The notes beneath the pieces were generated by a model. That model was not told the DNA's origin and did not search any database. It saw only the letters and a list, made by a program, of their open reading frames with translations. DNA of 64,000 nt, from the NCBI GenBank assembly GCA_021199655.1, contig JAJQHQ010000019.1, positions 12,511-76,510 on the forward strand, in the 5' to 3' direction. The position numbers and the translations under genes are program-made. This DNA is from Lachnospiraceae bacterium (GTDB lineage Bacteria; Bacillota; Clostridia; Lachnospirales; Lachnospiraceae). Every line of letters starts with the position of its first letter. The stretch's first letter is position 1. This document shows positions 3,569 to 54,656 of the stretch, one piece after another.

Positions 3569-3591
3569 CTGTTCAGTACCTTCACAGTTAC
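3565..3591 (-). repeat. GTAAC-hairpin repeat, exact inverted copy
   Basis: GTAACTGTTCAGTACCTTCACAGTTAC is the exact reverse complement of 142-168. Its TAA (3566-3568) is the stop codon of the upstream ORF. Confidence 0.9.
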
Positions 3592-6162: not shown

Positions 6163-6191
6163 TTGACAAAAAAAATCCATACTGCTATCAT
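6163..6191 (+). promoter_or_regulatory. Candidate sigma-A promoter of glnA (TTGACA-17 nt-TATCAT)
   Basis: TTGACA at 6163-6168, a 17-nt A-rich spacer, and TATCAT at 6186-6191, about 160 nt upstream of the glnA ATG. Confidence 0.5.
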
Positions 6192-6261
6192 CCGTTCAGA
6201 TGAGCGAATGATATACCCTGTAAAAAGAATGTTGAATGTGCTTTCTCACTCGCCGGGTTTT

Positions 6262-6311
6262 GCCCACAATCTCTGATTGCGGGCGTGGCCATCCCGCACA
6301 AAGTGCGGGAT
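6262..6311 (+). promoter_or_regulatory. glnA leader with mutually exclusive hairpins
   Basis: GCCCACAAT/ATTGCGGGC (6262-6284) and ATCCCGCAC/GTGCGGGAT (6291-6311). The alternative pairing GCGGG (6280-6284)/CCCGC (6293-6297) overlaps both. Confidence 0.35.
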
Positions 6312-6349
6312 AAGGTCCTCGCCGGGTGGCAGCAATAAGGAGGAACGAT

Positions 6350-7681
6350 ATGAGCAGGTATACGAGAGCGGATATATACAAAATTATTGAGGAAGAGGAC
6401 GTGCAGTTTATCCGGCTGCAGTTCACGGATATGTTCGGCAATCTGAAAAATCTTGCCGTGACGGTCAACCAGCTGGATCGTGTGCTGGACAATAAGGTCA
6501 CGTTTGACGGCGCATCCATCGAGGGCTTTGCCCGGATCGAGCGCTCCGATCTGTGTCTGCATCCGGATCTGGATACCTTCCTGATTTTCCCATGGCGGCC
6601 GCAGAATGGAAAGGTGGCCCGTTTCATTTGTGATATTTATTACGCGGACGGCAGCCCGTTCGGTGGGGATCCGCGGTATGTGCTGAAAAAGGTGATCGCG
6701 GAAGCGAAAGAGATGGGGTATTGTCTGGAGGCAGGGCCGGAGTGTGAATTTTTCCTCTTCCATACCGATGATGAAGGCCGGCCGACTACAGTGACGCATG
6801 AGCAGGCAGGATATTTTGATGTCGCGCCGATCGATCTTGGCGAGAATGCGCGGCGGGATATGATCCTGACGATGGAGGAGATGGGTTATATTGTAGAATC
6901 TTCTCATCATGAGGCAGCCCCGGCACAGCATGAGATTGATCTGCGCTACGATGAGGCGCTGCAGAGCGCGGACGGCATCATGACATTCCGGCTCGCGGCA
7001 AAGACGGTTGCCAAGCGTCATGGACTGCATGCGTCCTTTATGCCCAAGCCGGTCGCGGGGGTGAACGGTTCCGGCATGCATCTCAATCTTTCACTGACAA
7101 AGGATGGAAAAAATGCGTTTTATGATGCTGCCGATCCCATTCATTTAAGTAAGGAAGGGCGCTGGTTCATCGGCGGCCTGCTGAAGCATATCCGTGCGGT
7201 GACGGCGGTGACGAACCCGATCGTTAATTCGTACAAACGGCTGGTGCCCGGCTTTGAGGCGCCGGTGCATGTCGCGTGGTCCGCAAAGAATCGGATTCCG
7301 CTGATCCGCATCCCGATCATGGGGAACGGTACCAAGCGCATCGAGCTTCGGAGCCCGGACAATGCGGCGAACCCGTATCTGGCACTGGCTGTCTGCATGG
7401 CTGCCGGACTGGACGGTATACGCAATCAGATCACGCCGCCGGAGAGCATGGATGAGAACCTGCACGCACTGGCGCCTGAAGACCTGAAAGCGAAAGGCGT
7501 AGAACGGCTTCCTGTTACCCTGCTTGAAGCAGTGGAGGCGCTGGAAGAGGATACATTTATCTGCGATGTGCTCGGAGAGCATGTATGCAGACGCTACATC
7601 AAGGCGAAAAAAGAGGAGTGGGAAGCCTATCAGGCGAGCGTGAGCAAATGGGAGCTTGACCGCTATCTTGCCAGAGTCTGA
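6350..7681 (+). CDS. glnA: Glutamine synthetase, type I
   Basis: Full-length GS-I similarity (FIRLQFTDMFGNLKN, GSGMHLNLS, NSYKRLVPGFEAP, RIELRSPD). AAGGAGG lies 7 nt before ATG 6350; the track ORF starts at GTG 6326. Confidence 0.95.
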   Translation: MSRYTRADIYKIIEEEDVQFIRLQFTDMFGNLKNLAVTVNQLDRVLDNKVTFDGASIEGFARIERSDLCLHPDLDTFLIFPWRPQNGKVARFICDIYYADGSPFGGDPRYVLKKVIAEAKEMGYCLEAGPECEFFLFHTDDEGRPTTVTHEQAGYFDVAPIDLGENARRDMILTMEEMGYIVESSHHEAAPAQHEIDLRYDEALQSADGIMTFRLAAKTVAKRHGLHASFMPKPVAGVNGSGMHLNLSLTKDGKNAFYDAADPIHLSKEGRWFIGGLLKHIRAVTAVTNPIVNSYKRLVPGFEAPVHVAWSAKNRIPLIRIPIMGNGTKRIELRSPDNAANPYLALAVCMAAGLDGIRNQITPPESMDENLHALAPEDLKAKGVERLPVTLLEAVEALEEDTFICDVLGEHVCRRYIKAKKEEWEAYQASVSKWELDRYLARV

Positions 7682-7815: not shown

Positions 7816-8373
7816 ATGATCAATACCAATATAATAGTCGTGTTTCCGAAACCGGAAGACGCGAAAAACGTTCGGAATCTCCTGATCCGCAGCGGATATG
7901 GAGTCCGGGCGGTCTGTACGAGCGGCGCACAGGCACTTTCAGCTGCTGACCGGCTGGGCTCAGGCGTGATCGTATGCGGATACAAGTTTGCGGATATGGT
8001 GTATTCAGAACTTTTTGAGGATATGCCGAAGTCCTTTGAGATGCTGCTGGTCGCTTCTCCGCGTGTAGTAAACGAGGGAATTGCGGAGGGGGTTCTCTGT
8101 GTGACGATGCCCTTTCATGTGAATGACCTGCTGGATTCCCTGGAGATGGTGATCAGCCAGCAGCAGCGCCGCAGACGTCAGAAGCGCATGATGGCGCCGC
8201 AGCGGAGCGAGGAAGAAAAGAAGCTGATCGCGGAGGCGAAATCTCTTTTGATGGAGCGCAACGGCATGACAGAGGAGGAGGCGCACCATTATCTGCAGAA
8301 AACCAGCATGGACAGCGGGACGAACATGGTGGAGACCGCGCAGATGCTGTTTGCGCTGATGTGTGACGCCTGA
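7816..8373 (+). CDS. ANTAR-domain RNA-binding regulator with an atypical receiver-like N-terminal domain
   Basis: C-terminal LIAEAKSLLMERNGMTEEEAHHYLQKTSMDSGTNMVETAQMLF fits the ANTAR pattern. The N-terminus reads IIVVFPKPED and lacks the acidic DD pair. Confidence 0.8.
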   Translation: MINTNIIVVFPKPEDAKNVRNLLIRSGYGVRAVCTSGAQALSAADRLGSGVIVCGYKFADMVYSELFEDMPKSFEMLLVASPRVVNEGIAEGVLCVTMPFHVNDLLDSLEMVISQQQRRRRQKRMMAPQRSEEEKKLIAEAKSLLMERNGMTEEEAHHYLQKTSMDSGTNMVETAQMLFALMCDA

Positions 8374-9421: not shown

Positions 9422-9448
9422 TTAACTGTGAAAGCACTGAACAGTTAC
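9422..9448 (+). repeat. GTAAC-hairpin repeat copy
   Basis: TTAACTGTGAAAGCACTGAACAGTTAC, ending 9 nt before the dapL Shine-Dalgarno. Confidence 0.8.
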
Positions 9449-9468
9449 GAACAACCAAGGAGGCCATT

Positions 9469-10683: not shown

Positions 10684-10826
10684 GTGACTATTCAGGACAG
10701 TACTTCGCACTTGCTGCGAAGTACGTATGAAAACGTATATTATGTAGGGAAAAGCCCCATCGCGGCGCGGAGACGCGATTTTAAATGGGCTTTTCCCTCG
10801 TAACTGTGAAGGGACTGAACAGTTAC
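10684..10826 (+). mobile_element. Composite MITE-like repeat (143 bp) bounded by GTAAC-family termini
   Basis: Left end GTGACTATTCAGGACAG starts one base after the dapL TAA. The right end is hairpin copy 10800-10826. Internal perfect stems are 10700-10724 and 10747-10758/10787-10798. Confidence 0.6.
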
Positions 10827-12620: not shown

Positions 12621-13484
12621 ATGGATTGTCAGAAAGGATTCCCAATAAAGCTTTATTGCATGTCTACAGGCATTCTTGATGATCCGGAAATATTCCGGAG
12701 GTATTACCGGGAGATGCCGGAAGGACGGCGTGCAAAGATTGACCGGGTGCGGATGGAGCAGGACAAAAAGCTTTCTCTTGCGGCAGGAATTTTGCTCAAT
12801 CGGGGTCTGCAGGAATTCGGCCTGCGTCAGGAAACAATCCGCATAGAGGAAGGCGCATACGGCAAACCATTCTTTCCGGACTTTCCGGATATCCATTTCA
12901 GTCTCTCCCATTCGCATGAGATGGCGCTGGCGGCCTTAGCTGATACCGAGGTCGGATGTGATATTGAATATCGAAAAAAGCCAAATGAAAAGCTGGCCGG
13001 ACGTTTTTTCTGCCCGGAGGAGAATGCCTGGATGACGGCCGCCCGGACGGAAACGGAGCGGGCGGAACGCTTTTATCGTCTCTGGACCTTAAAAGAGTGC
13101 TTTATCAAGGCTACCGGGCAGGGCCTGCGTCAGCCTCTGGACTCGTTTTGCTTTCGGATCGAGGATGCCAGGTTGCCATCATTGCTTCAATCGGCGGCAG
13201 GGTCTCCGCTGCCGCTTCGGTCCGCGTTAAACGTCTCCGCTTCGCTCCGGTCGGTGCTAAACGAACATCCACTGGATGTTCAGCACCGTCCACTGGACGA
13301 TCAGCGCCTCGCCGCGCATGAGAGAAACGCTTTGCGTTTGGGCGGCGCTGCCGTGGAGATTCGGCGCAGGAACAGTTCTGTGGAGGTCACGCAGACCTTT
13401 GATCAGGCGGAGTATGTGTTTGAGGAATATCGGATTGGCGGAGACGGAGAATATTGTGCGGCTGTGTGCCTGCGCAGCCAATGA
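12621..13484 (+). CDS. Sfp-type 4'-phosphopantetheinyl transferase carrying an in-frame repeat insertion
   Basis: GKPFFPD, HFSLSHS, VGCDIE, FYRLWTLKECFIKATGQG. Alternative start at ATG 12660 (MSTGILDD). Confidence 0.8.
   Translation: MDCQKGFPIKLYCMSTGILDDPEIFRRYYREMPEGRRAKIDRVRMEQDKKLSLAAGILLNRGLQEFGLRQETIRIEEGAYGKPFFPDFPDIHFSLSHSHEMALAALADTEVGCDIEYRKKPNEKLAGRFFCPEENAWMTAARTETERAERFYRLWTLKECFIKATGQGLRQPLDSFCFRIEDARLPSLLQSAAGSPLPLRSALNVSASLRSVLNEHPLDVQHRPLDDQRLAAHERNALRLGGAAVEIRRRNSSVEVTQTFDQAEYVFEEYRIGGDGEYCAAVCLRSQ
13191..13350 (+). repeat. GC-rich repeat modules (module 1 twice, module 2 once) read in frame within the PPTase ORF
   Basis: GTCTCCGCTYCGCTYCGGTCGGYG at 13202-13226 and 13233-13256. 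ATGAGAGAAACGCTTTGCGTTTGGGCGGC at 13318-13346. The same modules occur at 14525, 26302/26411 and 45716/45753. Confidence 0.8.
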
Positions 13485-13502
13485 AAAAAGGATAAAATGT
13501 CG

Positions 13503-13544
13503 AGCGCCTGTTCGGGACAGTTCCTCGCACTTGCTGCGAGGAAC
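13503..13544 (+). repeat. Partial copy of the 10684-10724 repeat arm with a compensated hairpin
   Basis: CCTGTTCGGGACAG + GTTCCTCGCA-CTTGC-TGCGAGGAAC, compared with CTATTCAGGACAG + GTACTTCGCA-CTTGC-TGCGAAGTAC at 10688-10724. Confidence 0.7.
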
Positions 13545-13577
13545 GAAACAGAATGCAAGAAAAAGGAGCAACAGAGT

Positions 13578-14498
13578 ATGAAAAAACCGGTACTGGTAGT
13601 GATGGCGGCGGGTATGGGCAGTCGCTACGGAGGATTGAAACAGATTGACCCGGTCGATCCGGAAGGGCATATTATCATGGACTTTTCTGTCTATGACGCC
13701 GTCCGCGCCGGATTTGAAAAGGTGATTTTCATTATCAAACGGGAAAATGAAGCGGATTTTCGCGCAGCCATTGGCGACCGCCTCGCCGGGCACATAGAAG
13801 TGGAATACGTTTATCAGGAGCTGACAAACCTTCCGGAAGGGTTTTCCGTGCCGGAGGGCCGTGTGAAACCGTGGGGGACCGGACATGCTGTCTTAAGCTG
13901 TCAGGGAACTGCGGACGGTCCGATGGTCGTTATCAACGCGGATGATTTCTATGGAAGAAACGCGTTTGCGCTGGCGTATGATTTTCTCACACGGAAAGAG
14001 GAAGCCGCAGGCCGCTACATGATGGTCGGCTATCGTCTGGAAAACACACTGACGGAGAACGGATCTGTGGCGCGCGGCGTTTGCAGTACAGATGAGAATG
14101 GTTATCTGAAAACGATCACAGAGCGCACCAGCATTGAACGGCATGGCGACCGGATCGCATACACAGAGGACGGCGGCGCAAGCTGGAATGAGCTTCCCCC
14201 GGATACTACCGTTTCTCTGAATATGTGGGGCTTTTCCGGGGATATTCTTACAGAACTGAACGAGCGCTTCCGGGCATTCCTCGCGGAGAATCTGCCGAAA
14301 AACCCGCTGAAATGCGAGTATTTCCTGCCCTTTGTCGTGGATGAACTGCTGACAGAAGGAAAGGCGACGGTGAAAGTCGAGAAAACTCCGGATAAATGGT
14401 ACGGGGTGACATATAAAGAAGACAAGCCGGCACTGATGGCGGCAATTCAGAAGATGAAGGATGAAGGGGTTTACCCACAGAAGCTGTGGGAAAAGTAA
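13578..14498 (+). CDS. Sugar-phosphate nucleotidyltransferase family protein (substrate unknown)
   Basis: N-terminal VVMAAGMGSRYGGLKQI signature and WGTGHAV. AAGGAG lies 9 nt before ATG 13578; the track ORF begins at 13497 inside a repeat. Confidence 0.7.
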   Translation: MKKPVLVVMAAGMGSRYGGLKQIDPVDPEGHIIMDFSVYDAVRAGFEKVIFIIKRENEADFRAAIGDRLAGHIEVEYVYQELTNLPEGFSVPEGRVKPWGTGHAVLSCQGTADGPMVVINADDFYGRNAFALAYDFLTRKEEAAGRYMMVGYRLENTLTENGSVARGVCSTDENGYLKTITERTSIERHGDRIAYTEDGGASWNELPPDTTVSLNMWGFSGDILTELNERFRAFLAENLPKNPLKCEYFLPFVVDELLTEGKATVKVEKTPDKWYGVTYKEDKPALMAAIQKMKDEGVYPQKLWEK

Positions 14499-14665
14499 CA
14501 TTAGTTCAGAACAGCAGACCACAGGTCTCCGCTCCGCTCCGGTCGGTGCTTAACGTGTGCCACTGGCACGCAGCACCCGCCCATCCCAAGAAGAAAAGAC
14601 AGCCTTTAGCAGACAAGTCTGCACAGGCTGTCTTTTCTTCTTGCTGCTGTTCTGAACTGTTTCAC
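14495..14665 (+). mobile_element. Composite MITE-like repeat (171 bp) with inverted termini
   Basis: Termini are GTAACATTAGTTCAGAACAGCAG (14495-14517) and CTGCTGTTCTGAACTGTTTCAC (14644-14665). It carries module 1 (14525-14548) and a 19-bp perfect stem (14587-14605/14625-14643). Its TAA is the stop of the upstream gene. Confidence 0.7.
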
Positions 14666-14796
14666 AATTTTACTTATTCTTTACATAAGAGGGATTATGC
14701 ATTTTACATAGCGTGACTAAAATGATTATCGTAACGGGGCACCGATAAGCCCCGGAATTCGATCAGAAAACGATTAGAAAAAGGAGATCATTTATT

Positions 14797-17482: not shown

Positions 17483-17509
17483 GTGATTGTAAAGGTACTG
17501 AACAGTTAC
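17483..17509 (+). repeat. GTAAC-hairpin repeat copy (left arm degenerate)
   Basis: GTGATTGTAAAGGTACTGAACAGTTAC, in the pstA-pstB spacer. Confidence 0.7.
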
Positions 17510-24906: not shown

Positions 24907-27090
24907 ATGAATATGCGTACAGAATATCAAAACAAAATGTGCGGCACTGAACAATTGTTTCTTGCAGCCTATGCACTGTGGCTGACCGCCACAGACCTGA
25001 AGCTGACGATGTGGGCATACGTTGCTCCTGCGTCGAGATTGTTCAGCTGTATGCAGCTTGCCGCGTATCTGCTGCTCGGGATACAGTTTTTGGTAAAGCC
25101 TGCATCAAAGAAACACTATGGGAAAAAGGATCTGGCCGGTGTCCTTCTGATTTTGTTCTGCTCGGTGCTTGTCTGGCATGCCGGCAGAACGAACCGGCAG
25201 ATTTTTCCGGTGTTGTTGTTTCTGTATTTTTCCGCTGATATTCCTTACAAAAAGATTCTCAAATGCTCTGTGGCAATACAGCTTGCGGTTATGACATTTG
25301 CCATTGCAACATCCGGCTGCGGGCTGATTGAGGATGTCCTCTGGTACGAAGGAGATCGCGTAAGACACAGCCTCGGATATGATTATTGCGGCTATCCTGC
25401 ACATATCATGCTGTTTGTGACGATGAGCTGGCTTTGTATCCGGGGAAAAGCGCATCTTGCAGACGCAGCGGTTCTTCTGGCTTTGAACGGTGTACTCTTT
25501 ATCCTCACGGACTCCAGATCGGATCTGCTTCTGGCAGTTCTGGGGATTGCAGGAGCATTCCTGTGGGGACGTGATTTTACAGTGGAGCCTGAAGGAAATC
25601 CTTTAGGAAGATGTTTGTCCCGCGTTTTTTGCCATGTCAGAAATTTTCTTGCAAAATTCGGCTTTCTGATCGCGTTTGTGATTTCGGTTGTCGTGCAGTT
25701 TTTTTATAATTCGGACAGCACCTTCTGGTACCGCATCAACGAGACTCTGAACGGGCGTTTGCAGCTGGGACATTCCGCGATACAGGAATATGGATTTTCT
25801 CTGTTTGGGAAGGCGATTCACTGGTACGGACAGGGCAGCCTGCGGCTGGGGATGTCGGATACCTATAATTATGTGGACAACTCATTTTTAAAAGAACTTC
25901 TGACGTATGGCTGGGTATTCGCTGTACTGCTGCTCATCGGATTTTACTTTACAGGGAAAAAACTGGCGCAGCAGGAAGAATGGATGCTCTGCTGGGCGCT
26001 GCTGATCACGATTGCTTACTCTGTCATTAATGCGCAGCTTTGCGTCCTTTCCTTTCAGCCGTTTATCCTGCTTCCGGGGATGCTGTTTGCATCAGAGAAA
26101 GGGGCGGGTAATTCGGGCGCAGAGTCTCCGCACACAGGTTCAAAGAAATCCGGGGAAACAAAAGAATTGAAAGAACTGAAAAAAACGGAAGAAACTGCCG
26201 GAAACAGCCGTATGAGATTCCTCAACACAGAGATTGATAATGTCACATTTGAGGAAGCGCTTACGTGGATCGAGGCATATCTGGATGACGCAGAGGAAGT
26301 GCTCTCCGCTCCGCTTCGGTCGGCGGATATCCCGCCCGAAGGGCGAGGATGCCCGCGCCCCACAATCGGAGATTGGGGGCATAACCCGGCGAGGGCAGAA
26401 TGTGCCGCCCATGAGAGAAACGCTGCGCGTTTGGGCGGCTACATTGTCACCCCGAATGTGGATCATATCGTCCGGCTGGAGACAGACCAGGCGCTGCAAA
26501 AGGCATATGAGAGCGCGTCCCTGGTGTTGACGGACGGGCAGCCGCTCATCTGGATTTCCAAATGGCTGGGTACCCCGATCAAAGAGAAAATATCCGGTTC
26601 GGATCTGTTCCCGAGAGTCTGTCAGCTGGCCGCGAAAAAAGGCTATCGGATGTATTTCCTCGGCGCGGGTCCGGGAGTGGCTGATATGGCAGCCCAAAAG
26701 CTGACAACAGACTATCCCGGACTGCAGGTGGTCGGCACCTTCTCTCCGGCATATGGATTTGAAAAGGATGAAAGTCAGATAAAAGAAGTCTGGCAGAAGA
26801 TACACCAGGCAAAGCCGGATATCCTGATCGCAGCACTTGGCACGCCGAAACAGGAAATTTTCCTGTGGGAGAGCCGGGAAGAACTGAACGGGATGCTGGC
26901 GTTCGGCATCGGTGCGGGACTTGACTTTGCGGCCGGGAACGTAAAACGCGCGCCGCACTGGATGCAGAAATGCGGTCTTGAGTGGTTCTACCGCCTCTGC
27001 CATGAGCCGAAACGGCTTTTTAAACGCTATCTCGTCGATGGCCTGAGGATCCTGCCGATCGTGTGGAAATATCGGAAAGAAAAGGGATAA
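24907..27090 (+). CDS. Fusion: polytopic O-antigen polymerase/ligase-like membrane domain + WecG/TagA (GT26) glycosyltransferase domain
   Basis: About 400 aa of multiple TM helices, a K/E-rich linker, then the GT26 core IVTPNVDHIV, TDGQPLIW, LGTPKQEIF, GAGLDFAAG. One continuous ORF. Confidence 0.7.
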   Translation: MNMRTEYQNKMCGTEQLFLAAYALWLTATDLKLTMWAYVAPASRLFSCMQLAAYLLLGIQFLVKPASKKHYGKKDLAGVLLILFCSVLVWHAGRTNRQIFPVLLFLYFSADIPYKKILKCSVAIQLAVMTFAIATSGCGLIEDVLWYEGDRVRHSLGYDYCGYPAHIMLFVTMSWLCIRGKAHLADAAVLLALNGVLFILTDSRSDLLLAVLGIAGAFLWGRDFTVEPEGNPLGRCLSRVFCHVRNFLAKFGFLIAFVISVVVQFFYNSDSTFWYRINETLNGRLQLGHSAIQEYGFSLFGKAIHWYGQGSLRLGMSDTYNYVDNSFLKELLTYGWVFAVLLLIGFYFTGKKLAQQEEWMLCWALLITIAYSVINAQLCVLSFQPFILLPGMLFASEKGAGNSGAESPHTGSKKSGETKELKELKKTEETAGNSRMRFLNTEIDNVTFEEALTWIEAYLDDAEEVLSAPLRSADIPPEGRGCPRPTIGDWGHNPARAECAAHERNAARLGGYIVTPNVDHIVRLETDQALQKAYESASLVLTDGQPLIWISKWLGTPIKEKISGSDLFPRVCQLAAKKGYRMYFLGAGPGVADMAAQKLTTDYPGLQVVGTFSPAYGFEKDESQIKEVWQKIHQAKPDILIAALGTPKQEIFLWESREELNGMLAFGIGAGLDFAAGNVKRAPHWMQKCGLEWFYRLCHEPKRLFKRYLVDGLRILPIVWKYRKEKG
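26299..26439 (+). repeat. GC-rich repeat modules read in frame inside the GT26 domain
   Basis: Module 1 at 26302-26326 and module 2 at 26411-26439. The centre 26327-26353 has an inverted copy at 38890-38915 (24/26 nt). Confidence 0.8.
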
Positions 27091-27095
27091 GATAT

Positions 27096-28349
27096 ATGAT
27101 CATCGCGATGGATCTTACTTCGCTGGACGACAATTTCACAGGGATTGAGCGCTATGCGCTGAACATGGCTCTGGAGCTTATCAGGGCAGCGGACGGGGAC
27201 AGCTTCGAACTTATTTTCAAGAATCAGATTTTTCCTGATTTTAAGCAGTATGAAAGTCAGGATAATATTCATTTTCATATCCTGCCGGGATGCAGCAAGC
27301 TGCTCTTCAACCAGTGGAGGCTGCCGCGCTTCCTGAACCGGCTGAACGCGGATTATTACCTGTTTTTTGCGTTTCCGATGCCGGTTCTCCTGCACAAAAA
27401 ACATGTGCTCTCCACCATCCATGACCTGGGCTGCTGGGACTGCCCGGAGACCATGAAGACGCAGATGGTCTGGTATTTTCGCCTGTCCTACCGGTGGGCG
27501 GTACGGCATGCGGAACGTACCATTACCGTTTCCGAATTCAGCAAAAGCCGGATACAGCAGATTCTGCATGTGCCTGAGGAAAAAATACTGGTCACTTACA
27601 ATGGTGTGTGCGGAAAGTTCCTGACAGATGAAGGAAAAAGACAGACGTCTGTATCGGAAGATTTTGCCGAAAAATATCACCTTCCCGACGAGTATATGCT
27701 TTGTCTTTCTACGTTGGAACCGCGCAAGAACATGACGCTGCTTTTAAACGCATATCTGGATCTTTACAGACAGGGGAAAATACGGACAAAGCTGGTGCTT
27801 GCCGGGCGGAAGGGCTGGAAGATCGATGAGCTGCTGCGGAAAGTGGGAGTGGCAGAGCCTGTAAACAGTTCAGACATTGCGTCTGACGCTACAGATGCAA
27901 CGGGTATTTCAGAGGCAACGGATGCATCAGATACAGCGGATGCGACAGATGCAATTCCTGTGACAATAACCGGATTTGTCGACGACGACGACCTACCGGA
28001 GGTGTACCGGATGGCAAAGTACTTTGTCTTCCCATCCATCTATGAAGGCTTCGGGATTCCGCCTCTGGAGGCAATGTCGCAGGGAGTGCCGGTGATTTCT
28101 TCCGATGCGGCATCCATGCCGGAAGTGCTCGGTGACGCACCGGTGTATTTTAAAAGCCAAGATGAGGAAGACCTGAAACGGGCGATTCTTGCGATGGAAA
28201 GCCTTACAGAGGCGGCGAGAGCGGATCGGGCGGCTGCCGGGATGCGGCAGAGTCAAAAATTCCGGTATGGACAGGAAGCGGAAAAAGTGAGAGACTGTCT
28301 GCATGGGCATGGATACCCATACCATCGGGCAGAACGAAAACGTTCATGA
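27096..28349 (+). CDS. Glycosyltransferase family 4 (group 1)
   Basis: E-x7-E motif EGFGIPPLEAM and GT-B architecture. ATG 27096 lies 6 nt after the upstream stop. Confidence 0.85.
   Translation: MIIAMDLTSLDDNFTGIERYALNMALELIRAADGDSFELIFKNQIFPDFKQYESQDNIHFHILPGCSKLLFNQWRLPRFLNRLNADYYLFFAFPMPVLLHKKHVLSTIHDLGCWDCPETMKTQMVWYFRLSYRWAVRHAERTITVSEFSKSRIQQILHVPEEKILVTYNGVCGKFLTDEGKRQTSVSEDFAEKYHLPDEYMLCLSTLEPRKNMTLLLNAYLDLYRQGKIRTKLVLAGRKGWKIDELLRKVGVAEPVNSSDIASDATDATGISEATDASDTADATDAIPVTITGFVDDDDLPEVYRMAKYFVFPSIYEGFGIPPLEAMSQGVPVISSDAASMPEVLGDAPVYFKSQDEEDLKRAILAMESLTEAARADRAAAGMRQSQKFRYGQEAEKVRDCLHGHGYPYHRAERKRS
27861..27953 (+). repeat. In-frame low-complexity (S/D/A/T) insertion beginning with a GTAAC-family terminus
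   Basis: GTAAACAGTTCAGAC (27861-27875) matches terminus GTAACAGTTCAGAAC of 51634. It is followed by degenerate ACAGATGCA-type repeats encoding SDATDATGISEATDASDTADATDA. Confidence 0.55.
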
Positions 28350-28397: not shown

Positions 28398-29780
28398 ATG
28401 AGTAATTACAGCAAGCTTTACTTTACAATAAAAAAATACGGTGGTGTATTCAAAAATATTGTCCCCAGGCAGACACGTATGGCTCTGAAGGACAAGCTGG
28501 TGCAGAAGAATATCGCAGAGTTTTTAAGTACAAAAAAATCGTATGACAGCAAGGCATGGCCTGACGGGGTGAACCTGATCGGCAGCATACGCGCCGAGAT
28601 GGGGCTTGGACAGAGCTGCCGCCTTGTAGCACGGCAGCTGCAGATGAGCGGCTGTCCGTTTTCTATCTGCAACATCGGATTCGACGATAACCTGCGGGAG
28701 GACGACCACTCCTGGGATGACTATATTTCCGTAGAAGTGCCGCCACTCTCACGGGCAACACTGGACGATCGCTTACAGAACAATCAGCGTCCGCCCTCGC
28801 AGGCTGCGGAATATGCCGCTGACGGGACAAACGCTTCGCGTCCGAATGGCTCATCGGCATTACCCTTTGGGATCAATCTCTTTCATGTGAACCTGTGCGA
28901 GATGGGAAACATGTTTTCTGCCAATTCATCGTTCTGGGACGGGCATTACAATATTGCATTCTGGCTCTGGGAGCTCGAAGACTTCCCAAAAGAGTGGGTG
29001 AAATACTGCAGTCTTTTTGACGAGATATGGACGCCCTCCGCATTTGCGGGGCGCGGCATGCAGAAGGTGATCGATGTGCCGGTGCGCACGGTGCCATACC
29101 GTCCGACGGCGCCCTTCGATGATTCCTGTACGAGAGAAACATTTGGGCTGCCGGAACATAAATTCCTCGCTCTGATCATGTATGATTCCAACAGCACCAC
29201 CGGGCGCAAGAACCCGCAGGGTGCGATCACGGCTTACCGAAAGGCTTTCCCACAGGAAGATAAGGACTGCGGGCTCGTGATCAAGATCAATAACGCAAAG
29301 GATGAGGATGTACGGTGCCTGAAAAAGGAACTTGATGGGTATCGTAATGTGTATTTTATCACTGAAGTGCTGGAAAAAGAGAAAGTAAACAGCCTGATTC
29401 GCTGCTGCGACGTCTATCTTTCCCTGCACCGCTCGGAAGGCTTCGGTCTGGTCATTGCGGAGGCCATGCTTCTTGGCACACCCGTGATCGCCACCAACTA
29501 TTCCTCGAACGTTGAATTCATGAGCGAAGAGGCATCCTGCCTTGTGGATTATCAGCTGATCAAAAATCCGCACACCGAGGGTGCGTACAAAAAGGGCTGT
29601 GTGTGGGCTGACCCGGATCTGGATCAGGCTGCCGAATACATCCGCCGCCTGAAAAACGACCGGGCATACTATGAATCAAAAGTAAAAAACGGAGCGGCAT
29701 ATCTCGACCGGGCATTGAATGAAGAAAAGCTGAATGCACTGTGGAGAGAGAGAATTGGAGCTGTGGGGGCTGATCATTGA
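28398..29780 (+). CDS. Glycosyltransferase, group-1-like C-terminal domain
   Basis: RSEGFGLVIAEAMLLGTPVIAT (E-x7-E). GAGGGA RBS. Confidence 0.75.
   Translation: MSNYSKLYFTIKKYGGVFKNIVPRQTRMALKDKLVQKNIAEFLSTKKSYDSKAWPDGVNLIGSIRAEMGLGQSCRLVARQLQMSGCPFSICNIGFDDNLREDDHSWDDYISVEVPPLSRATLDDRLQNNQRPPSQAAEYAADGTNASRPNGSSALPFGINLFHVNLCEMGNMFSANSSFWDGHYNIAFWLWELEDFPKEWVKYCSLFDEIWTPSAFAGRGMQKVIDVPVRTVPYRPTAPFDDSCTRETFGLPEHKFLALIMYDSNSTTGRKNPQGAITAYRKAFPQEDKDCGLVIKINNAKDEDVRCLKKELDGYRNVYFITEVLEKEKVNSLIRCCDVYLSLHRSEGFGLVIAEAMLLGTPVIATNYSSNVEFMSEEASCLVDYQLIKNPHTEGAYKKGCVWADPDLDQAAEYIRRLKNDRAYYESKVKNGAAYLDRALNEEKLNALWRERIGAVGADH
28738..28856 (+). repeat. Degenerate copy of the GC-rich module set, in frame in the glycosyltransferase ORF
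   Basis: CACTGGACGATC (28759-28770) is identical to 13291-13302. GACAAACGCTTCGCGTCCGAATGGC (28826-28850) matches module 2 at 18/25 nt in the same reading frame (LDD..., NA.R..G). Confidence 0.5.
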
Positions 29781-32391: not shown

Positions 32392-33399
32392 GTGCTGACA
32401 CCGAAGCAAAATCTGCTGGAGACACTGAAAAAGGATGGGAAACCGGAGTGTCTCTGCAATTCGTTTACGATGTTCCGCGGCATTCCGGGAGATCCTGTTT
32501 TTAAGCTTGTGAGAGGAAACCGTATCCGTGGGACAACGTCCCATGACCAGTGGGGGACGCTGATCCTGTTTCCGGAGGACGCGCCTGCGGCCGTGCCTTA
32601 CGTGACGCCGGAGAATCAGGTCATTCAGGATATCTCGGAGTGGCAAAAGTATGTAAAAGTACCGGATCTGGAAGGAAAATGCCAGGAAGGCTGGGAGGAC
32701 GCGATCGCGGCTGAGAAAGCCATCGACCACGAGAAATATCTGACCATGACCGTCATGGGGACGGGTATTTTCGAACAGCTGCATATGCTGATGACATTTG
32801 AGGATACGCTCATGAATTTCCTGCTGGAGCCGGAGGCCATGCACGAGCTGATCGATGTGATCTGCGAATACCGTCTCACTTACATGAAGCTGATCGTAGA
32901 GCATCTGCATCCGGACTGCATCTGTTCCCACGATGACTGGGGTTCCAAAAACAGTATGTTCATGTCGCCGGAAGTCTGGCGTGAGTTTTTCAAAGAGCCA
33001 TTCCGCAAACTGTATGATTATCTGCACGCCAACGGCGTTATTGTCATGCATCACGGGGATTCTTATATGGAGCCGATCGTGGAAGACATGGCAGAGATCG
33101 GCGTTGATATCTGGCAGGGTGTGCTGCCGACAAACAATATCAAAGCGATATCCGAAAAAGTCGGCGACCGGATGCTTCTGATGGGCGGGATCGACTCGGT
33201 GATCGACCGGGCAGATGCTACGGAGGAAGAGATCCGCAAAGAGACACGCAGAGCCTGCACGGAATACGGTGATCTGAAAGGGTTTATGCCGTGCATGACC
33301 TACGGAGGTCCCGGAACCATCTATCCTGAAGTGGAAACCATCATCATTGATGAGATCAACCGGTACAATATGGAAAAATATGGCGTAGCCATCTGCTGA
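32392..33399 (+). CDS. URO-D/MtaA-CmuA-fold methyltransferase (candidate substrate:corrinoid methyltransferase)
   Basis: Family-typical blocks FEQLHMLMTFEDTLMNFLLEPEAMHEL, SHDDWGSKNSMFMSPE, VMHHGDSYMEPIV, LMGGID. GTG start after AAAGGAGG. Confidence 0.7.
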   Translation: MLTPKQNLLETLKKDGKPECLCNSFTMFRGIPGDPVFKLVRGNRIRGTTSHDQWGTLILFPEDAPAAVPYVTPENQVIQDISEWQKYVKVPDLEGKCQEGWEDAIAAEKAIDHEKYLTMTVMGTGIFEQLHMLMTFEDTLMNFLLEPEAMHELIDVICEYRLTYMKLIVEHLHPDCICSHDDWGSKNSMFMSPEVWREFFKEPFRKLYDYLHANGVIVMHHGDSYMEPIVEDMAEIGVDIWQGVLPTNNIKAISEKVGDRMLLMGGIDSVIDRADATEEEIRKETRRACTEYGDLKGFMPCMTYGGPGTIYPEVETIIIDEINRYNMEKYGVAIC

Positions 33400-34965: not shown

Positions 34966-35979
34966 ATGTTATCAGCAAAAGAAAACTTTTTTGAGACAGT
35001 AAAACCGGACGGACATCCTGACAGAATCATGAAGCAGTATGAAAATCTGGCATTCCTCAATTCTAACCCGATTCTTCTCTATATCAGAGGAAAACGGTAT
35101 CCGGGCATGGCTCCGTCCAAAGACAAATTCGGGACAGAAGTTCTGTGGCCGGAAAACCAGATCGCGGCGATGCCCCATGTGACGGCAGATAACAAAGTAA
35201 TTCCGGATATTACGGAATGGCAAAAATATCTGAAGATCCCGGATATCGTATCGGAGTGCTCGGATCCGGCCCTGTGGGAGCCGTTTATCAAACAGGCGGA
35301 AGAATACCGCGCGGAGGGGAAGGTGTTGATGGGATACCTGCCCACCGGACTTTTTGAGAGACTGCATTTCCTGATGGGATTTGAGGATATGCTGATGAAC
35401 TTCCTGCTGGAGCCGGAAGCCATGCATGAGCTGATCGATGCGATCGGAGAGTATCGTTTCCAGTTTATGAAGATGTCGGTGGACTTCCTTCATCCGGACG
35501 TGATAATCTCCCATGACGACTGGGGATCAAAGAGAGCTCTGTTTATCAGCCCGGATACCTGGCGTGAATTCATCAAGCCGCAGTATGTCAGAATGTATAA
35601 ATACATGAACGACCACGGCGTGCTGGTTATGCATCACGCGGACTCTTATCTGGAGCCGATCGTGGACGATATGGTGGAGCTCGGCATCGACATCTGGCAG
35701 GGAGCACTTCCGGAGAACGACATTCCGAAGATCCAGAAACAGGTAAACGGCAAGATGACGCTGATGGGCGGCATCGACGCGTCAATCGTAGACCGCGTGG
35801 ATTCCACTGAGGAAGAGATCCGCAGGGAGACCAGACGTGCGCTTGAGGAATATGCTCCGAATGGACATTTTATCCCCTGCATCACCTATGGCGGCCCCGG
35901 CACCCTGTTTAAACATGTAGATCCGATCATCAACGATGAGATCGACAGATACAACAAAGAGGTATATGGGATCGGATGA
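34966..35979 (+). CDS. URO-D/MtaA-CmuA-fold methyltransferase, paralogue of 32392-33399
   Basis: Same conserved blocks (FERLHFLMGFEDMLMNFLLEPEAMHEL, SHDDWGSKRALFISPD, VMHHADSYLEPIV). ATG 34966 has better spacing to AAGGAG than ATG 34960. Confidence 0.7.
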   Translation: MLSAKENFFETVKPDGHPDRIMKQYENLAFLNSNPILLYIRGKRYPGMAPSKDKFGTEVLWPENQIAAMPHVTADNKVIPDITEWQKYLKIPDIVSECSDPALWEPFIKQAEEYRAEGKVLMGYLPTGLFERLHFLMGFEDMLMNFLLEPEAMHELIDAIGEYRFQFMKMSVDFLHPDVIISHDDWGSKRALFISPDTWREFIKPQYVRMYKYMNDHGVLVMHHADSYLEPIVDDMVELGIDIWQGALPENDIPKIQKQVNGKMTLMGGIDASIVDRVDSTEEEIRRETRRALEEYAPNGHFIPCITYGGPGTLFKHVDPIINDEIDRYNKEVYGIG

Positions 35980-38843: not shown

Positions 38844-39043
38844 ACGCGCAGGGGCATGTAAGGAGTTCTGTGGCCTGCGCTCGCCGCGTGGCATCCTCGT
38901 CCTTCGGACGGGATAAGCGCCACACGCGCCCCGCGCGGGCAAGCAGGAGTCGACAAGCCGCCGCCCACTCGATTCCGCCATAAATGAAATATGCACACGG
39001 CTGATTCGGTCAATGAAAATTATCAGACAAATAGCAAAAAAAT

Positions 39044-39083
39044 ATCAAAAAATCAAAAAAATCAAAAAAATCAAAAAAATCAG
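39044..39083 (+). repeat. Tandem 8/9-nt repeat (ATCAAAAAA) x5
   Basis: TCA recurs at 39045, 39053, 39062, 39071 and 39080, separated by A-runs. Confidence 0.85.
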
Positions 39084-39213: not shown

Positions 39214-40245
39214 ATGCACGATAGTGTATCATCTGCTATGCCTTGTTTTATGAACAAAATCACCTGTTTGTGTAACAAGAAACGGAAGCTGAAAACCCAG
39301 ATGAATGTGTCAAACGATGAAGATCAGGAATACACAACAGAAGGCAGAAATAATAATGCAAAGGCGAAACGTACGCGGCTGGATGATGCAGCTTTACGTG
39401 ACGCTATTGACATCCTGGATTCTATAAAATTCGCACTGACAGATGTCCTGCTGAATGCGGATTCGTTTGCGGGAGCCTGTAAAAAAAGGGGTTTGTATCA
39501 TATAAATATAAAAAAATTGTTGATTTCAAAAGCGTTTTCAGCCTGCCGGACAGAAGGGCCGCCTTTGCGGCTGGAAGAAACTGTTGTCCTGGAACCGGAT
39601 GGGTTTGAACAGCTTTATCTGGATGTTTTCGGGATGGATGCGATATGCGATGCAGAGCTTCCATTGGACTTCCGTCAGACGGTTTTTGATGTGATCGGGC
39701 AATTAAACGAGCAGGAGCAGAAGGTCCTCCGTTTACGATACGGGTTTTGCGACAAATACGGCATTCCGTTAACATTGGAAAAAACAGGATGTGAACTTGG
39801 CATTACAGCCCCTCGGGTTAAGGTAATTCAGAATAATGCTCTTTGCAAATTGCAGCACCCGCCTTTAAAAACCTGGCTGATGGAAGGATCCATTCAATAT
39901 CAGGCCAGACAGAAAGTTCTTCAGTCGGATCTGGATACATACAAAGCTACTGTTTACTCCTGGTTGAATAGTCATATTGCAAAAACAGACCGAGCCGGGC
40001 GGCAGGAAAACGATATAAAAAGCGACATAAAAGCCGAAGACATTTATTCACTGGGGATTGATGCCATGGGTTTTTCAAATCGAACCGGCAACTGTCTGAA
40101 ACGTGCCGGGAAAAACACGTTTCGTGACGTTCTTGAGCTTACGGAAGAGGATATGTCTAAAATACGCGGACTGGGGTGGAAATGCCGGGAGGAAATCAAT
40201 CGGAAACGCATGGAATGGCTGACGAAGCAAGATGATAATATTTAA
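39214..40245 (+). CDS. Protein combining a sigma-70 region-4-like HTH with an RNAP alpha-CTD-like helix-hairpin-helix domain
   Basis: EQEQKVLRLRYGF...LTLEKTGCELGITAPRVKVIQNNALCKLQHP fits the sigma region 4 pattern. GFSNRTGNCLKRAGKNTFRDVLELTEEDMSKIRGLGWKCREEI fits the alpha-CTD pattern. Start codon uncertain. Confidence 0.55.
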   Translation: MHDSVSSAMPCFMNKITCLCNKKRKLKTQMNVSNDEDQEYTTEGRNNNAKAKRTRLDDAALRDAIDILDSIKFALTDVLLNADSFAGACKKRGLYHINIKKLLISKAFSACRTEGPPLRLEETVVLEPDGFEQLYLDVFGMDAICDAELPLDFRQTVFDVIGQLNEQEQKVLRLRYGFCDKYGIPLTLEKTGCELGITAPRVKVIQNNALCKLQHPPLKTWLMEGSIQYQARQKVLQSDLDTYKATVYSWLNSHIAKTDRAGRQENDIKSDIKAEDIYSLGIDAMGFSNRTGNCLKRAGKNTFRDVLELTEEDMSKIRGLGWKCREEINRKRMEWLTKQDDNI

Positions 40246-40261
40246 GGTACTGAAGAGTTAC
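40244..40261 (+). repeat. Partial GTAAC-hairpin repeat (right half)
   Basis: AAGGTACTGAAGAGTTAC, overlapping the TAA stop (40243-40245) of the upstream gene. Confidence 0.6.
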
Positions 40262-40280
40262 GAACGAGCAGGTTCCGCAT

Positions 40281-42595: not shown

Positions 42596-45500
42596 ATGAA
42601 AGCAGGGCATCTGAAAAATAATACACATACAAAGACTGCTTTTTTAATATTTTGTATTGTATTATTTACAGTCTCTATGAGTATAATGAAGGTCCGTGCT
42701 GAAGATACAGAGTTTCCGTTTTCGGGAGATGGCTCAAAGGATTCCCCTTATCTGATTCAAAGTGTGGAAGAACTGTGCGAATTTCGGGATCTGGTGAATG
42801 AAGGAGAAGAGTTTCAGGACTGTTATTTTTACCAGACCGGGAATCTTGATCTCGGCGGTATGGATTGGGTTCCGATCGGGATTTATGGGAGCGGCCATTA
42901 CTTTTATGGTGTCTATGACGGCGGAGGACACTATCTGGAAAATCTTACAATTGTCGAGCCAATCGATCCGGGAGAGAATGAGTCATCCAGTAAGCCGGGG
43001 CTGTTTGGACAGCTGGCAGGCATTGTCCTGAATCTGGGAATCGAAAGCGGTGAGATTGAAGGCACTTACTGCGGCTCCATTGCAAGCCATGCTGTGTCAG
43101 GTGCTTCTCCTTATATTATCAACTGCTATAATAAAGCGGATGTTAAGGGCCGGCGGGCCGGCGGGATCGCTGACAACTTCAGCGGTGGAACGATCATTAA
43201 CTGCTGGTACAGCGCGAATATAGAGAGCTTATCCGGGACGGCATCAGGACCGGCTTCTTATGATGGAATACTGATTGACTGTTTCGGCATCACGGATGAT
43301 TACGCGGATTCCTTTCTGGGAACGATCATTGCCGCCCGCGGGACCGGTTCGGAATCGGATCAGTCGGGTGACAGCCGGATTTTTGATGCAGGTCTTTTTT
43401 ATTTGCCTGAGGAAATTGATATTGATATGCTGATCCCATGGGAATGGGACGAAGATGAAAATGAGCTGGTTTTTTCAGAAAACACTTCTGCACAGGTATC
43501 GGTAAATGCGGAAACGGCCTTTGAGGGAGAAGGGACAGAAGCGGAGCCTTATCTGATTCAATCCTGGTCGGATCTGTGTATGTTCCGCTATCTGGTAAAT
43601 ACAGGGAATGAGTTTTCCGGTATTTATTTTCAGCAGACAGCGGATATTGCAATAGAAAGTGACGACTGGATTCCTGTTGGTATCTGCGGGAGCGGGAATT
43701 ACTTTTACGGCATATACGACGGTGCGGGACATGCCATTACGGGCCTGAGAACCAAATACCATATGGATTCGGAACAGGACAGCAAAGGGCTTTTTGGGCA
43801 GCTGGGCGGTGTGGTAGCCAATCTCAGACTGGAAGCGGTCGATATGGAAGGGGCTTATTGCGGAGCAATCGCCGCAATGGCTGCAGGCAAAGGTGAGGAA
43901 CGTACCGCTGCTATTTTGAACTGCTTTGTCAGTGGTTCCATAACCGGATACCGTGTTGGCGGAATTGCAGATTACTTTTCAGAGGCAACCATAGCGAATT
44001 GTATCAGCGATGTTACGATCACATTATATGAAGATGCCGGGGACTGGGAAGACAATACCGGCGGTATTCTTTCTTCCAGTCTGGACACGAAGGTCTATGG
44101 ATGCCGTACAACGGCAGCGCAGGTCATGCCGGATGCATATACCAGCGCTACATCAGGTGTGATCACGGCAGAGGATCTGCAGGATAAAGGATTTGTCCTC
44201 CGGCAGAACATACGCACTGCATTGACTCAGGAACTGTTTGCAAACCGGTTTGGCGTCCGCCTGATGCAGTGGGAACTGACAGAGGAAGGCATTCTACAAT
44301 TCGGGGAAGGGCAGCTGTATCTCCTGCTGTTTGACTGGATGAATCTGTATCTGCTTCCGGTCCTGCTGCTTGTTTTTATCATTTCCATTCTGATATTAAT
44401 GAAAAAAACCGGTATTAAGAGGTTTGAAGATCGATATCATCAGCAGATTTCTGCGGTTCTGATCATTTCGGCGATCCTTTCCGTATTTGTTGACTGTGCC
44501 GCGTTTGGAACCGCAAAAGGGTCATTATGTTTTGGTAATCTGTGTTTTGTTATACAGATCCATGTTGTTTTTGCAGCATCGCTCCTGTTGTTTACAGGAT
44601 ATGTTCGTACTCACGGTCGGAGGAATATCCGCATTGGCCGCGGAAACAGGACCGGCCTCATTACATTGTCTGCAGTGATGCTGCTGACATTGATTCTGGA
44701 GCTGCGGCAATTTGGCATTACGCCTCTCTATGATGCCTCTCTATATTATGGAAGCCTGGTGAGAGGAGTGAAATTATTTCGCCTGGATCTGTTCAGCTAT
44801 ATCGGCGCTTTTGTATGCTGGAAATGGGCGCAGGGAAGTGCTTTGCTGATCGCTCCGCTTGAGTTTCTGCTGCCGGGACAGATGACAGGCGTATATGTGT
44901 CAAATATTATCATAACGGAAATTACGATCGTGGTCATGTACCGTCTCTTAAAAGAATCCATAAGTGACTGCTCTCCTGTGCTTGCGGCTCTGTCGGGCGC
45001 CATTTTGATTTTTTGTCCCTATCAGTTAGGAATGTTTACGTATCTTAATTTTGATACGTACCTTTCCTGTTATGTAATCTGGCTGTTATACAGCTACAGA
45101 CGAAAGAACAATCTGATGATTGCGTTTTGCGGCTATTTGCTTTGCTTCACCAAGATAACCGGGGGTATCTTTTACGTGTTGTTTCTTGTGGCAGCTTCTG
45201 TGTATGAAGCGCTCAGACGATATACCGGATCCTGGCTCAGACGTATGGCCGGATGGTGGAGCTGGCCCAGATGTATCATCTGGATGGTCCCGGGATTTCT
45301 CTATCTGGGCGCCTATCTGTTCGGCGACTGGCTGACTATACAGCACTTCGAGGGAGCCTATGTGATCTCGGCAATGGCTTCGGCAAAAACACTGGTTTCC
45401 GCAGGAAATACTCTGGTGCAGGCATTTGTATTTGGATTTCGGTGGCTTTTCCTGCTGATCATCATCGCTGCGGGGATTCTGTGGCTGATATGCCCTCCGG

Positions 45501-47824: not shown

Positions 47825-47858
47825 CTGTGATGGTACGGAACAGTATTGAAACAGTTAC
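47821..47858 (+). repeat. GTAAC-hairpin repeat copy with expanded loop
   Basis: GTAACTGTGATGGTACGGAACAGTATTGAAACAGTTAC. Its TAA (47822-47824) is the rfbH stop. Confidence 0.75.
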
Positions 47859-54629: not shown

Positions 54630-54656
54630 GTAATTGTTCAGTACCTTCACAGCTAC
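54630..54656 (-). repeat. GTAAC-hairpin repeat, inverted copy
   Basis: GTAATTGTTCAGTACCTTCACAGCTAC, 25/27 identical to 3565-3591. Confidence 0.8.

Follow-up and report, generated by a model that had tools for sequence, protein, structure and literature searches.

A probable mobile hairpin repeat related to Rfam GA-cis lies in frame within the GT26 domain of a Lachnospiraceae membrane protein

Introduction

The window analyzed here, 64,000 nucleotides of contig JAJQHQ010000019.1 from a Lachnospiraceae bacterium (GenBank assembly GCA_021199655.1, positions 12,511 to 76,510 of the forward strand), encodes a polytopic membrane protein with a C-terminal glycosyltransferase domain of the GT26 family (PF03808, residues 537-708, E 6e-61), the N-terminal strand/helix block and the YIVTPN block of which are separated by 47 extra codons. 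The locus raises the question of what these codons are: a loop proper to the family, a peptide selected for its amino acids, or a structured nucleic acid that happens to be translated. As judged from the sequence, they probably represent a copy of a dispersed, GC-rich, non-autonomous mobile hairpin repeat, resembling MITEs (transposable elements of the miniature inverted-repeat type) and Rickettsia palindromic elements (RPEs), which would be translated as a passenger loop. This copy, designated copy A, is an expanded relative of Rfam GA-cis (RF02987), with two other hairpins, M2 and M3, where hairpin 2 would have its tip, the minimal two-hairpin form of the family being what Rfam models as GA-cis.

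The insertion in the GT26 domain

The translation of the host gene (24907-27090) places the pentapeptide DDAEE and 47 residues between the N-terminal strand/helix block MRFLNTEIDNVTFEEALTWIEAYL and the YIVTPNVDHIV block, with the extra codons, 47-49 in number (26293/26299-26439), lying between helix α1 and the YIVTPN strand. The IVATPN motif starts at residue 34 in the solved structures of TagA (7mpk, 5wb4), as compared with residue 77 in the GT26 domain of the window. Deleting the insert in silico lets the NCBIfam profiles of TarA and EpsA align unbroken from residue 4-7 through IVTPN, whereas with the insert kept the alignment begins only at residue 72-77; neither the TagA structures nor the TarA, EpsA and WecG profiles have room for it. 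The claim of the initial annotation that 47 extra codons split the GT26 N-terminal block from YIVTPN is thus borne out by the coordinates, the translation and the spacing in TagA and the profiles, and an intrinsic variable loop of the GT26 family can be rejected, being absent from the TagA structures and at odds with profiles that become continuous only after removal of the insert.

The inserted DNA has a GC content of 67%, compared with 50% for the host gene, and preserves the reading frame. The peptide read from copy A runs EEVLSAP...ARLGG and would form a Pro/Gly/Ala/Arg-rich surface loop tolerated by the enzyme as a passenger rather than as a designed part. The AlphaFold model calculated from a 6-sequence alignment has a predicted local distance difference test (pLDDT) value of 38, too low to be of use, and the loop was placed instead from the sequence alignment with TagA.

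Architecture and fold of copy A

Copy A comprises, in gene orientation, (i) a 5' arm, (ii) a central hairpin M2, (iii) an optional hairpin M3, (iv) a linker, and (v) a hairpin M4, equivalent to hairpin 1 of Rfam GA-cis. The order of the parts is constant in copies A and D, in L003k and in L016-L021 (alignment A5 and a further alignment), and the consensus reads TGGAAR, the arm CGCCCCCTCGC-N5-TCGGCG, M2 GATATCCCGCCCGAAGGGCGAGGATGCC, the optional M3 CRCGCCCCACAATCGGAGATTGGGGGCATA, the linker ACCCGGCGAGGGCAG and M4, the latter with the consensus GCGCCGCC-ATGAGAG-AAACGC-TGC-GCGTTT-GGGCGGCGC. Members of the family measure 66-160 nt and contain no transposase gene; the element ends are written TGGAAR-CGCCCCC...GGCGGCGC, with TGGAAR directly left of the arm in every copy and the 3' end of copy A falling a few bases short of the consensus. 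The 5' arm of copy A is a divergent version of the TGGAAACGCCCCCTCGC...TCGGCG arm of the family, the type common to copies B and C. Hairpin M3 comes and goes as a clean 30-nt block, being present in copies A and E and in L018, L019 and L020, and missing from L003k, L016 and L017.

Both folding and the consensus structure pair the 5' arm with the linker, the GGCGAGGG portion of which pairs back to the arm and closes a branched stem. Read on the opposite strand, the fold starts with hairpin M4, followed by the branched stem bearing M3 and M2, and the minus-strand RNA reaches -73.3 kcal/mol (z = -3.8).

Several parts of copy A recur in the window at the nucleotide level. Within the 5' arm (module 1 of the initial annotation), 26303-26323 matches 14526-14546 in 20/21 positions and 13234-13254 in 19/21; within M4 (module 2), 26404-26439 matches 13311-13346 in 33/36 positions (E 3e-8) and 26411-26439 matches 45753-45781 in 28/29 (E 7e-9). 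The initial annotation had described an insert that begins with module 1 and ends with module 2; these matches are real, but the modules are not independent repeats and constitute parts of one composite element. Its report of an inverted copy of the centre in the spacer at 38890-38915 also holds, 26328-26353 agreeing with the reverse complement in 24/26 positions (E 1e-4) and the match extending to 28/32 over 26322-26353 and 38890-38921. The two differences affect both partners of a single stem pair (GCCC/GGGC versus GTCC/GGAC) and are compensatory, as had been proposed. An additional match, of 26363-26393 to the reverse complement of 6249-6279 (28/31, E 3e-5), involves M3 and the linker. All E-values, from 1e-4 to 7e-9, refer to the 64-kb window, and shuffled sequences yielded no matches.

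Copies in the window

The window contains seven copies or fragments, A-G (Table 1), 4/7 of which are coding, with copies C, E and F in spacers or in a leader. Copy B, in the phosphopantetheinyl transferase (PPTase) gene, includes two module-1 units, two CCACTGG hairpins and M4. The spacer orthologous to that of copy C is devoid of the element in L003, L006 and L023. Copy D scores as a full-length GA-cis at 45705-45788 on the minus strand (45.6 bits versus a gathering score of 34.7), has the same ends as copy A, and has its second stem capped by GUAA. The decayed copy G has better-kept counterparts in L006 (14456-14504) and L005 (4583-4630).

The CCACTGG hairpin (13260-13300 and 14555-14578 in the window, 6540-6570 in L018) displays a constant core and fully covarying flanks, GAACATCC/GGATGTTC, CGTCC/GGACG and GTGCC/GGCAC, and is translated as a repeated (H/R)PLD in the PPTase. 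A tandem A-rich 9-nt repeat, AAAAAATCA, of about 5 units (39037-39080) adjoins copy F in the spacer upstream of gene 39214-40245.

Table 1. Position of the host gene, of the element and its parts, and of other repeats in the window
Feature	Position	Strand	Evidence
Host gene, 727-aa polytopic membrane domain fused to C-terminal GT26 (WecG/TagA/CpsF)	24907-27090	+	Open reading frame (ORF) list, Pfam, orthologues P0001-P0005
GT26 N-terminal strand/helix block, MRFLNTEIDNVTFEEALTWIEAYL	26212-26283	+	Translation; invariant in orthologue alignment A1
YIVTPNVDHIV block (strand β2 to conserved T-P-N motif)	26440-26472	+	Aligned to TagA residues 34-44; invariant in A1
Copy A, whole inserted element, 147 nt	26293-26439	- (GA-cis-sense strand, antisense to gene)	nhmmer 26294-26440, E 8e-28; alignments; GC content
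Copy A, 5' arm (module 1), GAGGAAGTGCTCTCCGCTCCGCTTCGGTCGGCG	26293-26325	-	Matches 14525-14555, 13233-13263; fold and consensus structure
Copy A, hairpin M2 (centre), GATATCCCGCCCGAAGGGCGAGGATGCC, 9-bp stem with one bulge	26326-26353	-	Inverted copy 38890-38921; L003 match; covariation
Copy A, optional hairpin M3, CGCGCCCCACAATCGGAGATTGGGGGCATA	26354-26383	-	Alignments; inverted copy 6249-6283
Copy A, linker ACCCGGCGAGGGCAG, 3' half of closing stem (CCCTCGCC/GGCGAGGG)	26384-26398	-	Kept in all composite copies
Copy A, hairpin M4 (module 2), hairpin 1 of Rfam GA-cis	26399-26439	-	Matches 13311-13346, 45753-45781; GA-cis alignment of copy D; covariation; L001
Copy B, in frame in Sfp-type PPTase gene 12621-13484	13191-13350	-	Repeat matches, Pfam, orthologues
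Copy C, intergenic, 3' of gene 13497-14498	14525-14578	-	Module 1 and CCACTGG hairpin
Copy D, canonical two-hairpin element, in frame in 1278-aa ORF 42596-46432 (...AVEAPPPLRSAAGCAVNERNAARLDGA...)	45703-45788	-	Rfam, frame
Copy E, glnA 5' leader, GA-cis-sense relative to glnA	6249-6330	+	Linker, M3, variant M2 (stem GCAC/GTGC)
Copy F, intergenic between 38733 and 39214	38873-38922	+	M2 with stem GTCC/GGAC and flanking arms; nhmmer E 5e-8
Copy G, decayed M4, in frame in GT4 gene 28398-29780 (...AAEYAADGTNASRPNG...)	28809-28853	-	Direct-repeat match, nhmmer
27-nt palindrome sites	142-168, 3565-3591, 9423-9449, 10800-10826, 17483-17509, 40231-40264, 47821-47847, 54630-54656		

Distribution in other genomes

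Taken together with relatives, the element occupies at least eight host genes of unrelated function, including those for the GT26 protein, the PPTase, the 1278-aa ORF, the GT4 enzyme, a PhoR-like kinase, pstA, a GT8-like enzyme, a MerR-like protein and a rhodanese-like protein. In the window and in L006 the orthologous PhoR-like kinase is free of the insert; in L003 and L023 it carries a 117-nt in-frame copy (TPPRQGSADIPPEGRGCHPARAGCAAHAENASRLYGAQN), and in L002 a truncated one. Hairpin M2 with six flanking bases (26320-26353) is identical in 34/34 positions to L003 7041-7074, at a non-orthologous locus. Across relatives, the PPTase site accommodates 0, 15, about 55 or about 75 extra residues, and there is a tendency for insertion sites to be used again or to accumulate modules. 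The names carried by homologues point to Lachnospiraceae as the lineage.

The profile search recovered full copies with E-values of 1e-21 to 1e-33 in independent NCBI, Logan and JGI assemblies. A pattern scan of JGI metagenomes retrieved six contigs with elements 87-95% identical to copy A and no other DNA in common with the window, one of them with a GC content of only 37.6%; their locations include a gene for a GT8-like enzyme (frame 0), a gene for a 553-aa membrane protein (reverse strand), a small gene at its 5' end, and a spacer. The L019 copy likewise lies in a non-coding spacer. At the protein level, an exhaustive peptide search of representatives, biased to frame 0, found five proteins, among them the MerR-like one, the rhodanese-like one and two others that carry the modules, and a word-indexed protein search with the 47-aa peptide gave no match. 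The viral contigs, plasmids and phages searched contained no copies and thus gave no sign of a phage or plasmid vector. The centre-hairpin pattern matched nine times in a collection of species-representative genomes without this lineage, none of the matches belonging to the family. Four of the nine fall on a sequence identical in as many Collinsella assemblies (L007 3171-3315, L011, L012 and L015; 145 nt examined), which includes an M2-like segment, GGCATCCTCGCCCTTCGG, and has no Rfam match.

Reading frames, covariation and strand

Hosts differ in how they read the element, with at least three frames or orientations in use. Frame 0 is found in the GT26 gene, the kinase and the GT8-like gene; the PPTase orthologues use frame +1, PQSEIGDKTRQGNIP being the insert read in that frame and the PQSE[IM]..KTR.GNIP segment of P0035-P0037 corresponding to M3 and the linker, with agreement at the DNA level; the membrane protein of L018 reads it in frame -1, on the reverse strand; and in P0156 the frame changes within the element.

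The stems are maintained by paired changes. In M4, 8/15 pairs are changed on both sides, none of 500 shuffles attains the observed score and slid controls score far lower; in M2, 3/9 pairs are changed on both sides, 98.8% of cells are paired and again 0/500 shuffles attain the score. The stem of M2 occurs as GCCC/GGGC, GTCC/GGAC and GCAC/GTGC, with a further change from CG to UA in the L022 orthologue of copy E. A check by covariation across copies had been suggested in the initial annotation; over the copies aligned here, with shuffles as the control, it is positive for the centre hairpin and M4 alike, and the earlier proposal of a structured DNA or RNA element in place of a protein-encoded feature is upheld by the several frames and orientations, the spacer copies, the covarying stems and the polymorphism between strains.

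In 8/9 in-gene sites the GA-cis strand runs antisense to the mRNA of the host, and in 4/5 intergenic copies it is sense to the downstream gene, a contrast with a Fisher p of 0.023 in a small and partly non-independent sample. Stop codons are rejected as the cause of the orientation and frame bias, because 5/6 frames are open in the insert of copy A.

Copies in leaders may have a role at the RNA level. A promoter-like site of near-consensus sequence, TTGACA-17-TATCAT with TG (6163-6191), lies upstream of copy E, and nearly the whole 5' untranslated region of glnA consists of the hairpins of this copy, which reach the ribosome-binding site (6163-6350 in the window; 2560-2770 in L022). In the orthologue of copy E at L022 2664-2733 both hairpins are kept by means of one double change and G·U pairs, and the repeat may have been domesticated as a glnA leader structure. 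An ANTAR-domain gene (7816-8373) follows glnA; dual hexaloop sites of the ANTAR type were considered for the leader copy and discarded, since the loops do not fit.

The GT26 site among strains and evidence for mobility

The orthologue P0001 of the host protein is 98% identical over the aligned columns, and its DNA (L001) is 98.6% identical to the window on one side of the indel and 99.3% on the other. L001 lacks 26295-26421 (about 126 nt of the insert) and retains as the only remnant of the element GCTGCGCGTTTGGGCGGC, the last 18 nt of M4 (26422-26439). As the origin of the L001 deletion, slippage involving two imperfect direct repeats, AGAGGAAGTGC and AGAGAAACGCT, was considered and set aside, since the junction it predicts does not agree exactly with that of L001. 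The insert is absent from the GT26 site of L003, and the orthologue P0004 reads DGTA-AYIVTPN with no residues between. The other orthologues, P0002, P0003 and P0005, display a filler of 20-36 residues that is variable, yet in its DNA it can be recognized as decayed copies of the same element and not as a loop of the GT26 family, AACGAAAGAAACGCTGCGCGTCCGGACGGC in L002 and GAAGAAACAC...GGGGCGGC in L005 being examples. A fresh-looking copy in the window thus stands against decayed copies at the same site in other species.

A clean footprint of insertion is found at the 3' end of pstA. The empty site in the window, L003 and L006 reads GCGGGCAGA-CTGATGAAG-GGACAG, and the occupied site in L023 reads GCGGGCAGA-CTAATGAAG, a 66-nt element, and CTGATGAAG-GGACAG, that is, a 9-bp target duplication. 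This element is itself a GA-cis, with a full-length match above the gathering score (48.2 bits, L023 15723-15802). In L016, the 9-bp repeats CTGTGGAAG/CTGTGGATG abut the element and match in 8/9 positions. The family probably inserts by a transposition-like event that falls outside the classical definition of a MITE.

Such spread would use a single-stranded, folded form of the GA-cis strand; the copies found within genes would be the survivors of selection for harmless peptides, and after insertion they would decay or undergo partial deletion.

Observations that weigh against mobility as a full account

Several observations temper the reading of the insert as a mobile passenger. No flanking direct repeat is found at copy A or at six other copies, the duplication being restricted to 2/9 copies, and terminal inverted repeats are lacking as well, so that the element does not move in the manner of classical MITEs; no conserved inverted repeat is formed by the ends CGCCCCCTCGC... 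and ...GGGCGGCGC, and the 3' terminus is not conserved because it belongs to a stem that covaries. The allele of L001 has the look of a deletion derivative and not of a virgin empty site, and hence gives no direct demonstration of gain at the GT26 locus. The decayed remnants at the GT26 site in L002, L005 and L006 reflect either conversion that refreshed an old occupancy or a site that was hit repeatedly. In addition, where only one side of a stem has changed, the result on the GA-cis strand is nearly always a G·U pair (5 in alignment A6; 10 versus 3 in A4), and the kinase element is better conserved than the flanking coding DNA (58/64 versus 352/465, p = 0.006), both of which hint at a constraint beyond selfish spread. 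The asymmetries in orientation, G·U pairs, leader copies and kinase point to a constraint that acts on the family in the form of one strand, RNA or single-stranded DNA (ssDNA), of GA-cis polarity.

Alternative explanations

These asymmetries are also what a functional structured RNA, either a cis-regulator or an antisense RNA, would leave behind, in which case the GT26 copy would be kept for its effect as RNA, for instance as an antisense transcript or as an mRNA structure tuning the expression of the polysaccharide locus. Such an origin would explain the strong covariation of the stems, the preference for one strand among G·U pairs, the glnA leader copy past a promoter-like site with its compensatory and G·U changes in L022, the sense orientation of most intergenic copies, and an element better conserved than the coding DNA around it. 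We consider it unlikely: a strain about 99% identical can dispense with the insert, in-gene copies of some age are decaying (L005 and copy G), the host genes are functionally unrelated, the GA-cis model misses copy A even at E ≤ 10, and the GA-cis strand is antisense in the GT26 gene, with no promoter evidence for that strand, none having been sought.

Selection of the peptide itself, as a flexible loop or linker whose common modules would produce the nucleotide repeats as a by-product, could account for the hydrophilic, Pro- and Gly-rich composition and for the similar peptides (SADIPPEGRGC..., AAHERNAARLGG) read in the same frame from most in-gene copies, although the search behind these same-frame hosts had a bias to frame 0. 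Other hosts read this DNA in frame +1 or on the reverse strand, non-coding copies exist, some of the compensatory changes in the stems are synonymous or alter codons non-conservatively, and a near-identical strain does without the insert, all of which renders this explanation very improbable. The shortness of the single matches (21-36 nt) could finally suggest chance similarity of GC-rich, low-complexity stretches or an assembly artefact, to which we assign a negligible probability: the matches within 64 kb are significant where no shuffle gave one, full copies occur in independent assemblies and the part order is the same in all copies, so that this explanation is already refuted. A translated copy of a mobile hairpin repeat remains by far the preferred account of the extra codons.

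Relationship to known elements

The functionally closest precedent is that of the RPEs, the overlap in sequence is with Rfam GA-cis, and the mosaic structure resembles that of repetitive extragenic palindromic sequences (REPs) and bacterial interspersed mosaic elements (BIMEs). RPEs are palindromic repeats translated in frame within unrelated genes (Ogata et al. 2000, 2002; PMC10969869). In common with the 147-nt copy A and its at least eight host genes, they are palindromic repeats of ~100-150 bp inserted in frame in unrelated ORFs as well as in spacers, give rise to extra peptide segments compatible with the fold of the host protein, and have no known associated transposase. The likeness is one of architecture, homology in sequence not being expected given the taxon and the GC content; gut Lachnospiraceae are concerned here, versus an obligate intracellular alphaproteobacterium, and the present family is GC-rich, with separable hairpin modules and optional parts, several frames, both orientations and one 9-bp target duplication.

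GA-cis has been proposed to be cis-regulatory and located upstream of genes, as its name suggests. Copy A contains hairpin 1 with its two stacked stems and an internal loop (M4, the part nearly identical to copy D), the closing stem and the ends of this RNA; in contrast, hairpin 2 with its GA/GA internal loops and GNRA tetraloop is not found, M2 and M3 standing in the place of the tetraloop. Because hairpin 2 is expanded in this way, copy A scores nothing against the model: GA-cis gave no match on 26100-26600 at E ≤ 10 and matched only copy D in the whole window at E ≤ 5, and copy A matched no Rfam family at relaxed thresholds. Unlike the upstream position proposed for GA-cis, copy A and both full matches (copy D and that of L023) are antisense within or overlapping coding sequence, and an antisense coding location together with a fresh insertion is more in keeping with a mobile repeat than with a dedicated cis-regulator. 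GA-cis "sRNA" calls by annotation pipelines therefore probably label a repeat, both full matches being antisense in or overlapping coding sequence and one of them a fresh insertion. The term GA-cis is absent from the main text of PMC5737381.

As in REPs and BIMEs, short imperfect palindromes are arranged in variable mosaics, with M2, M3, M4 and the CCACTGG hairpins combined differently from copy to copy, in both orientations, with stems kept by compensatory change and without terminal inverted repeats. REPs and BIMEs, known from enterobacteria and pseudomonads, are extragenic by definition, whereas most copies of the present family lie in genes (4/7 of those in the window). To our knowledge, REPs make no 9-bp target duplications. 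The family shares with MITEs its small size, structure, multiple copies, non-autonomous nature and, at 2/9 copies, a target duplication, but differs from classical ones, in which terminal inverted repeats go together with a target duplication that is uniform. Bacterial MITEs such as Correia/NEMIS, ERIC and BOX are sometimes intragenic and form in-frame fusions (PMC10969869, PMC2229807).

Colonization of genes in frame by palindromic repeats was treated as a peculiarity of Rickettsia, and the present family provides an independent case in a free-living gut Firmicute. In annotation and protein modeling, such inserts account for odd loops of low confidence, 20-60 residues long, in the enzymes of Lachnospiraceae, and their presence or absence among strains can be used as markers. 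The asymmetries in orientation and in G·U pairs make the choice between RNA function and selfish DNA testable, and the significance of the family would grow if the strand-specific constraint reflects RNA-mediated or another new mode of mobility. A bolder proposal, which we advance only tentatively and regard as possible rather than probable, is that GA-cis-type elements form an active mobile family without terminal inverted repeats that spreads by way of a folded single-strand intermediate of one strand, either RNA, in a retro-mobility akin to that of short interspersed nuclear elements (SINEs), or ssDNA; copies in 5' leaders would be transcribed or functional, and those of opposite orientation within genes would supply new peptide loops to the envelope and signaling proteins of Lachnospiraceae in the gut. 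In that event, a family filed by Rfam as an "RNA gene" would constitute a class of bacterial mobile element that is new, and protein-coding palindromes would gain a second, independent example.

Other repeats and loci

A second and unrelated repeat family comprises a 27-nt imperfect palindrome, GTAACTGTGAAGGTACTGAACAGTTAC, which occupies, in either orientation, many short spacers that separate co-directional genes (Table 1) and is also kept after pstA in L003 and L023; its appearance is that of a REP-like site, a terminator or an operator. A pair of 91-nt inverted repeats with 81% identity (14577-14667 and 51630-51720) contains a hairpin followed by CTGTTCTGAACTGTTTCAC, the latter related to this 27-nt family. 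The GT4 gene at 27063-28349 contains a low-complexity run, SDIASDATDATGISEATDASDTADATDA (27880-27990), which looks like a different kind of variable in-frame insert. In a related genome, a Clostridiales-1 RNA (RF01699, 93.7 bits) is located upstream of a DXP synthase gene (L023 202-422). A 300-nt direct repeat with 70% identity, its units (32761-33060 and 35344-35643) being spaced by 2583 nt, indicates that the polysaccharide locus includes paralogous genes.

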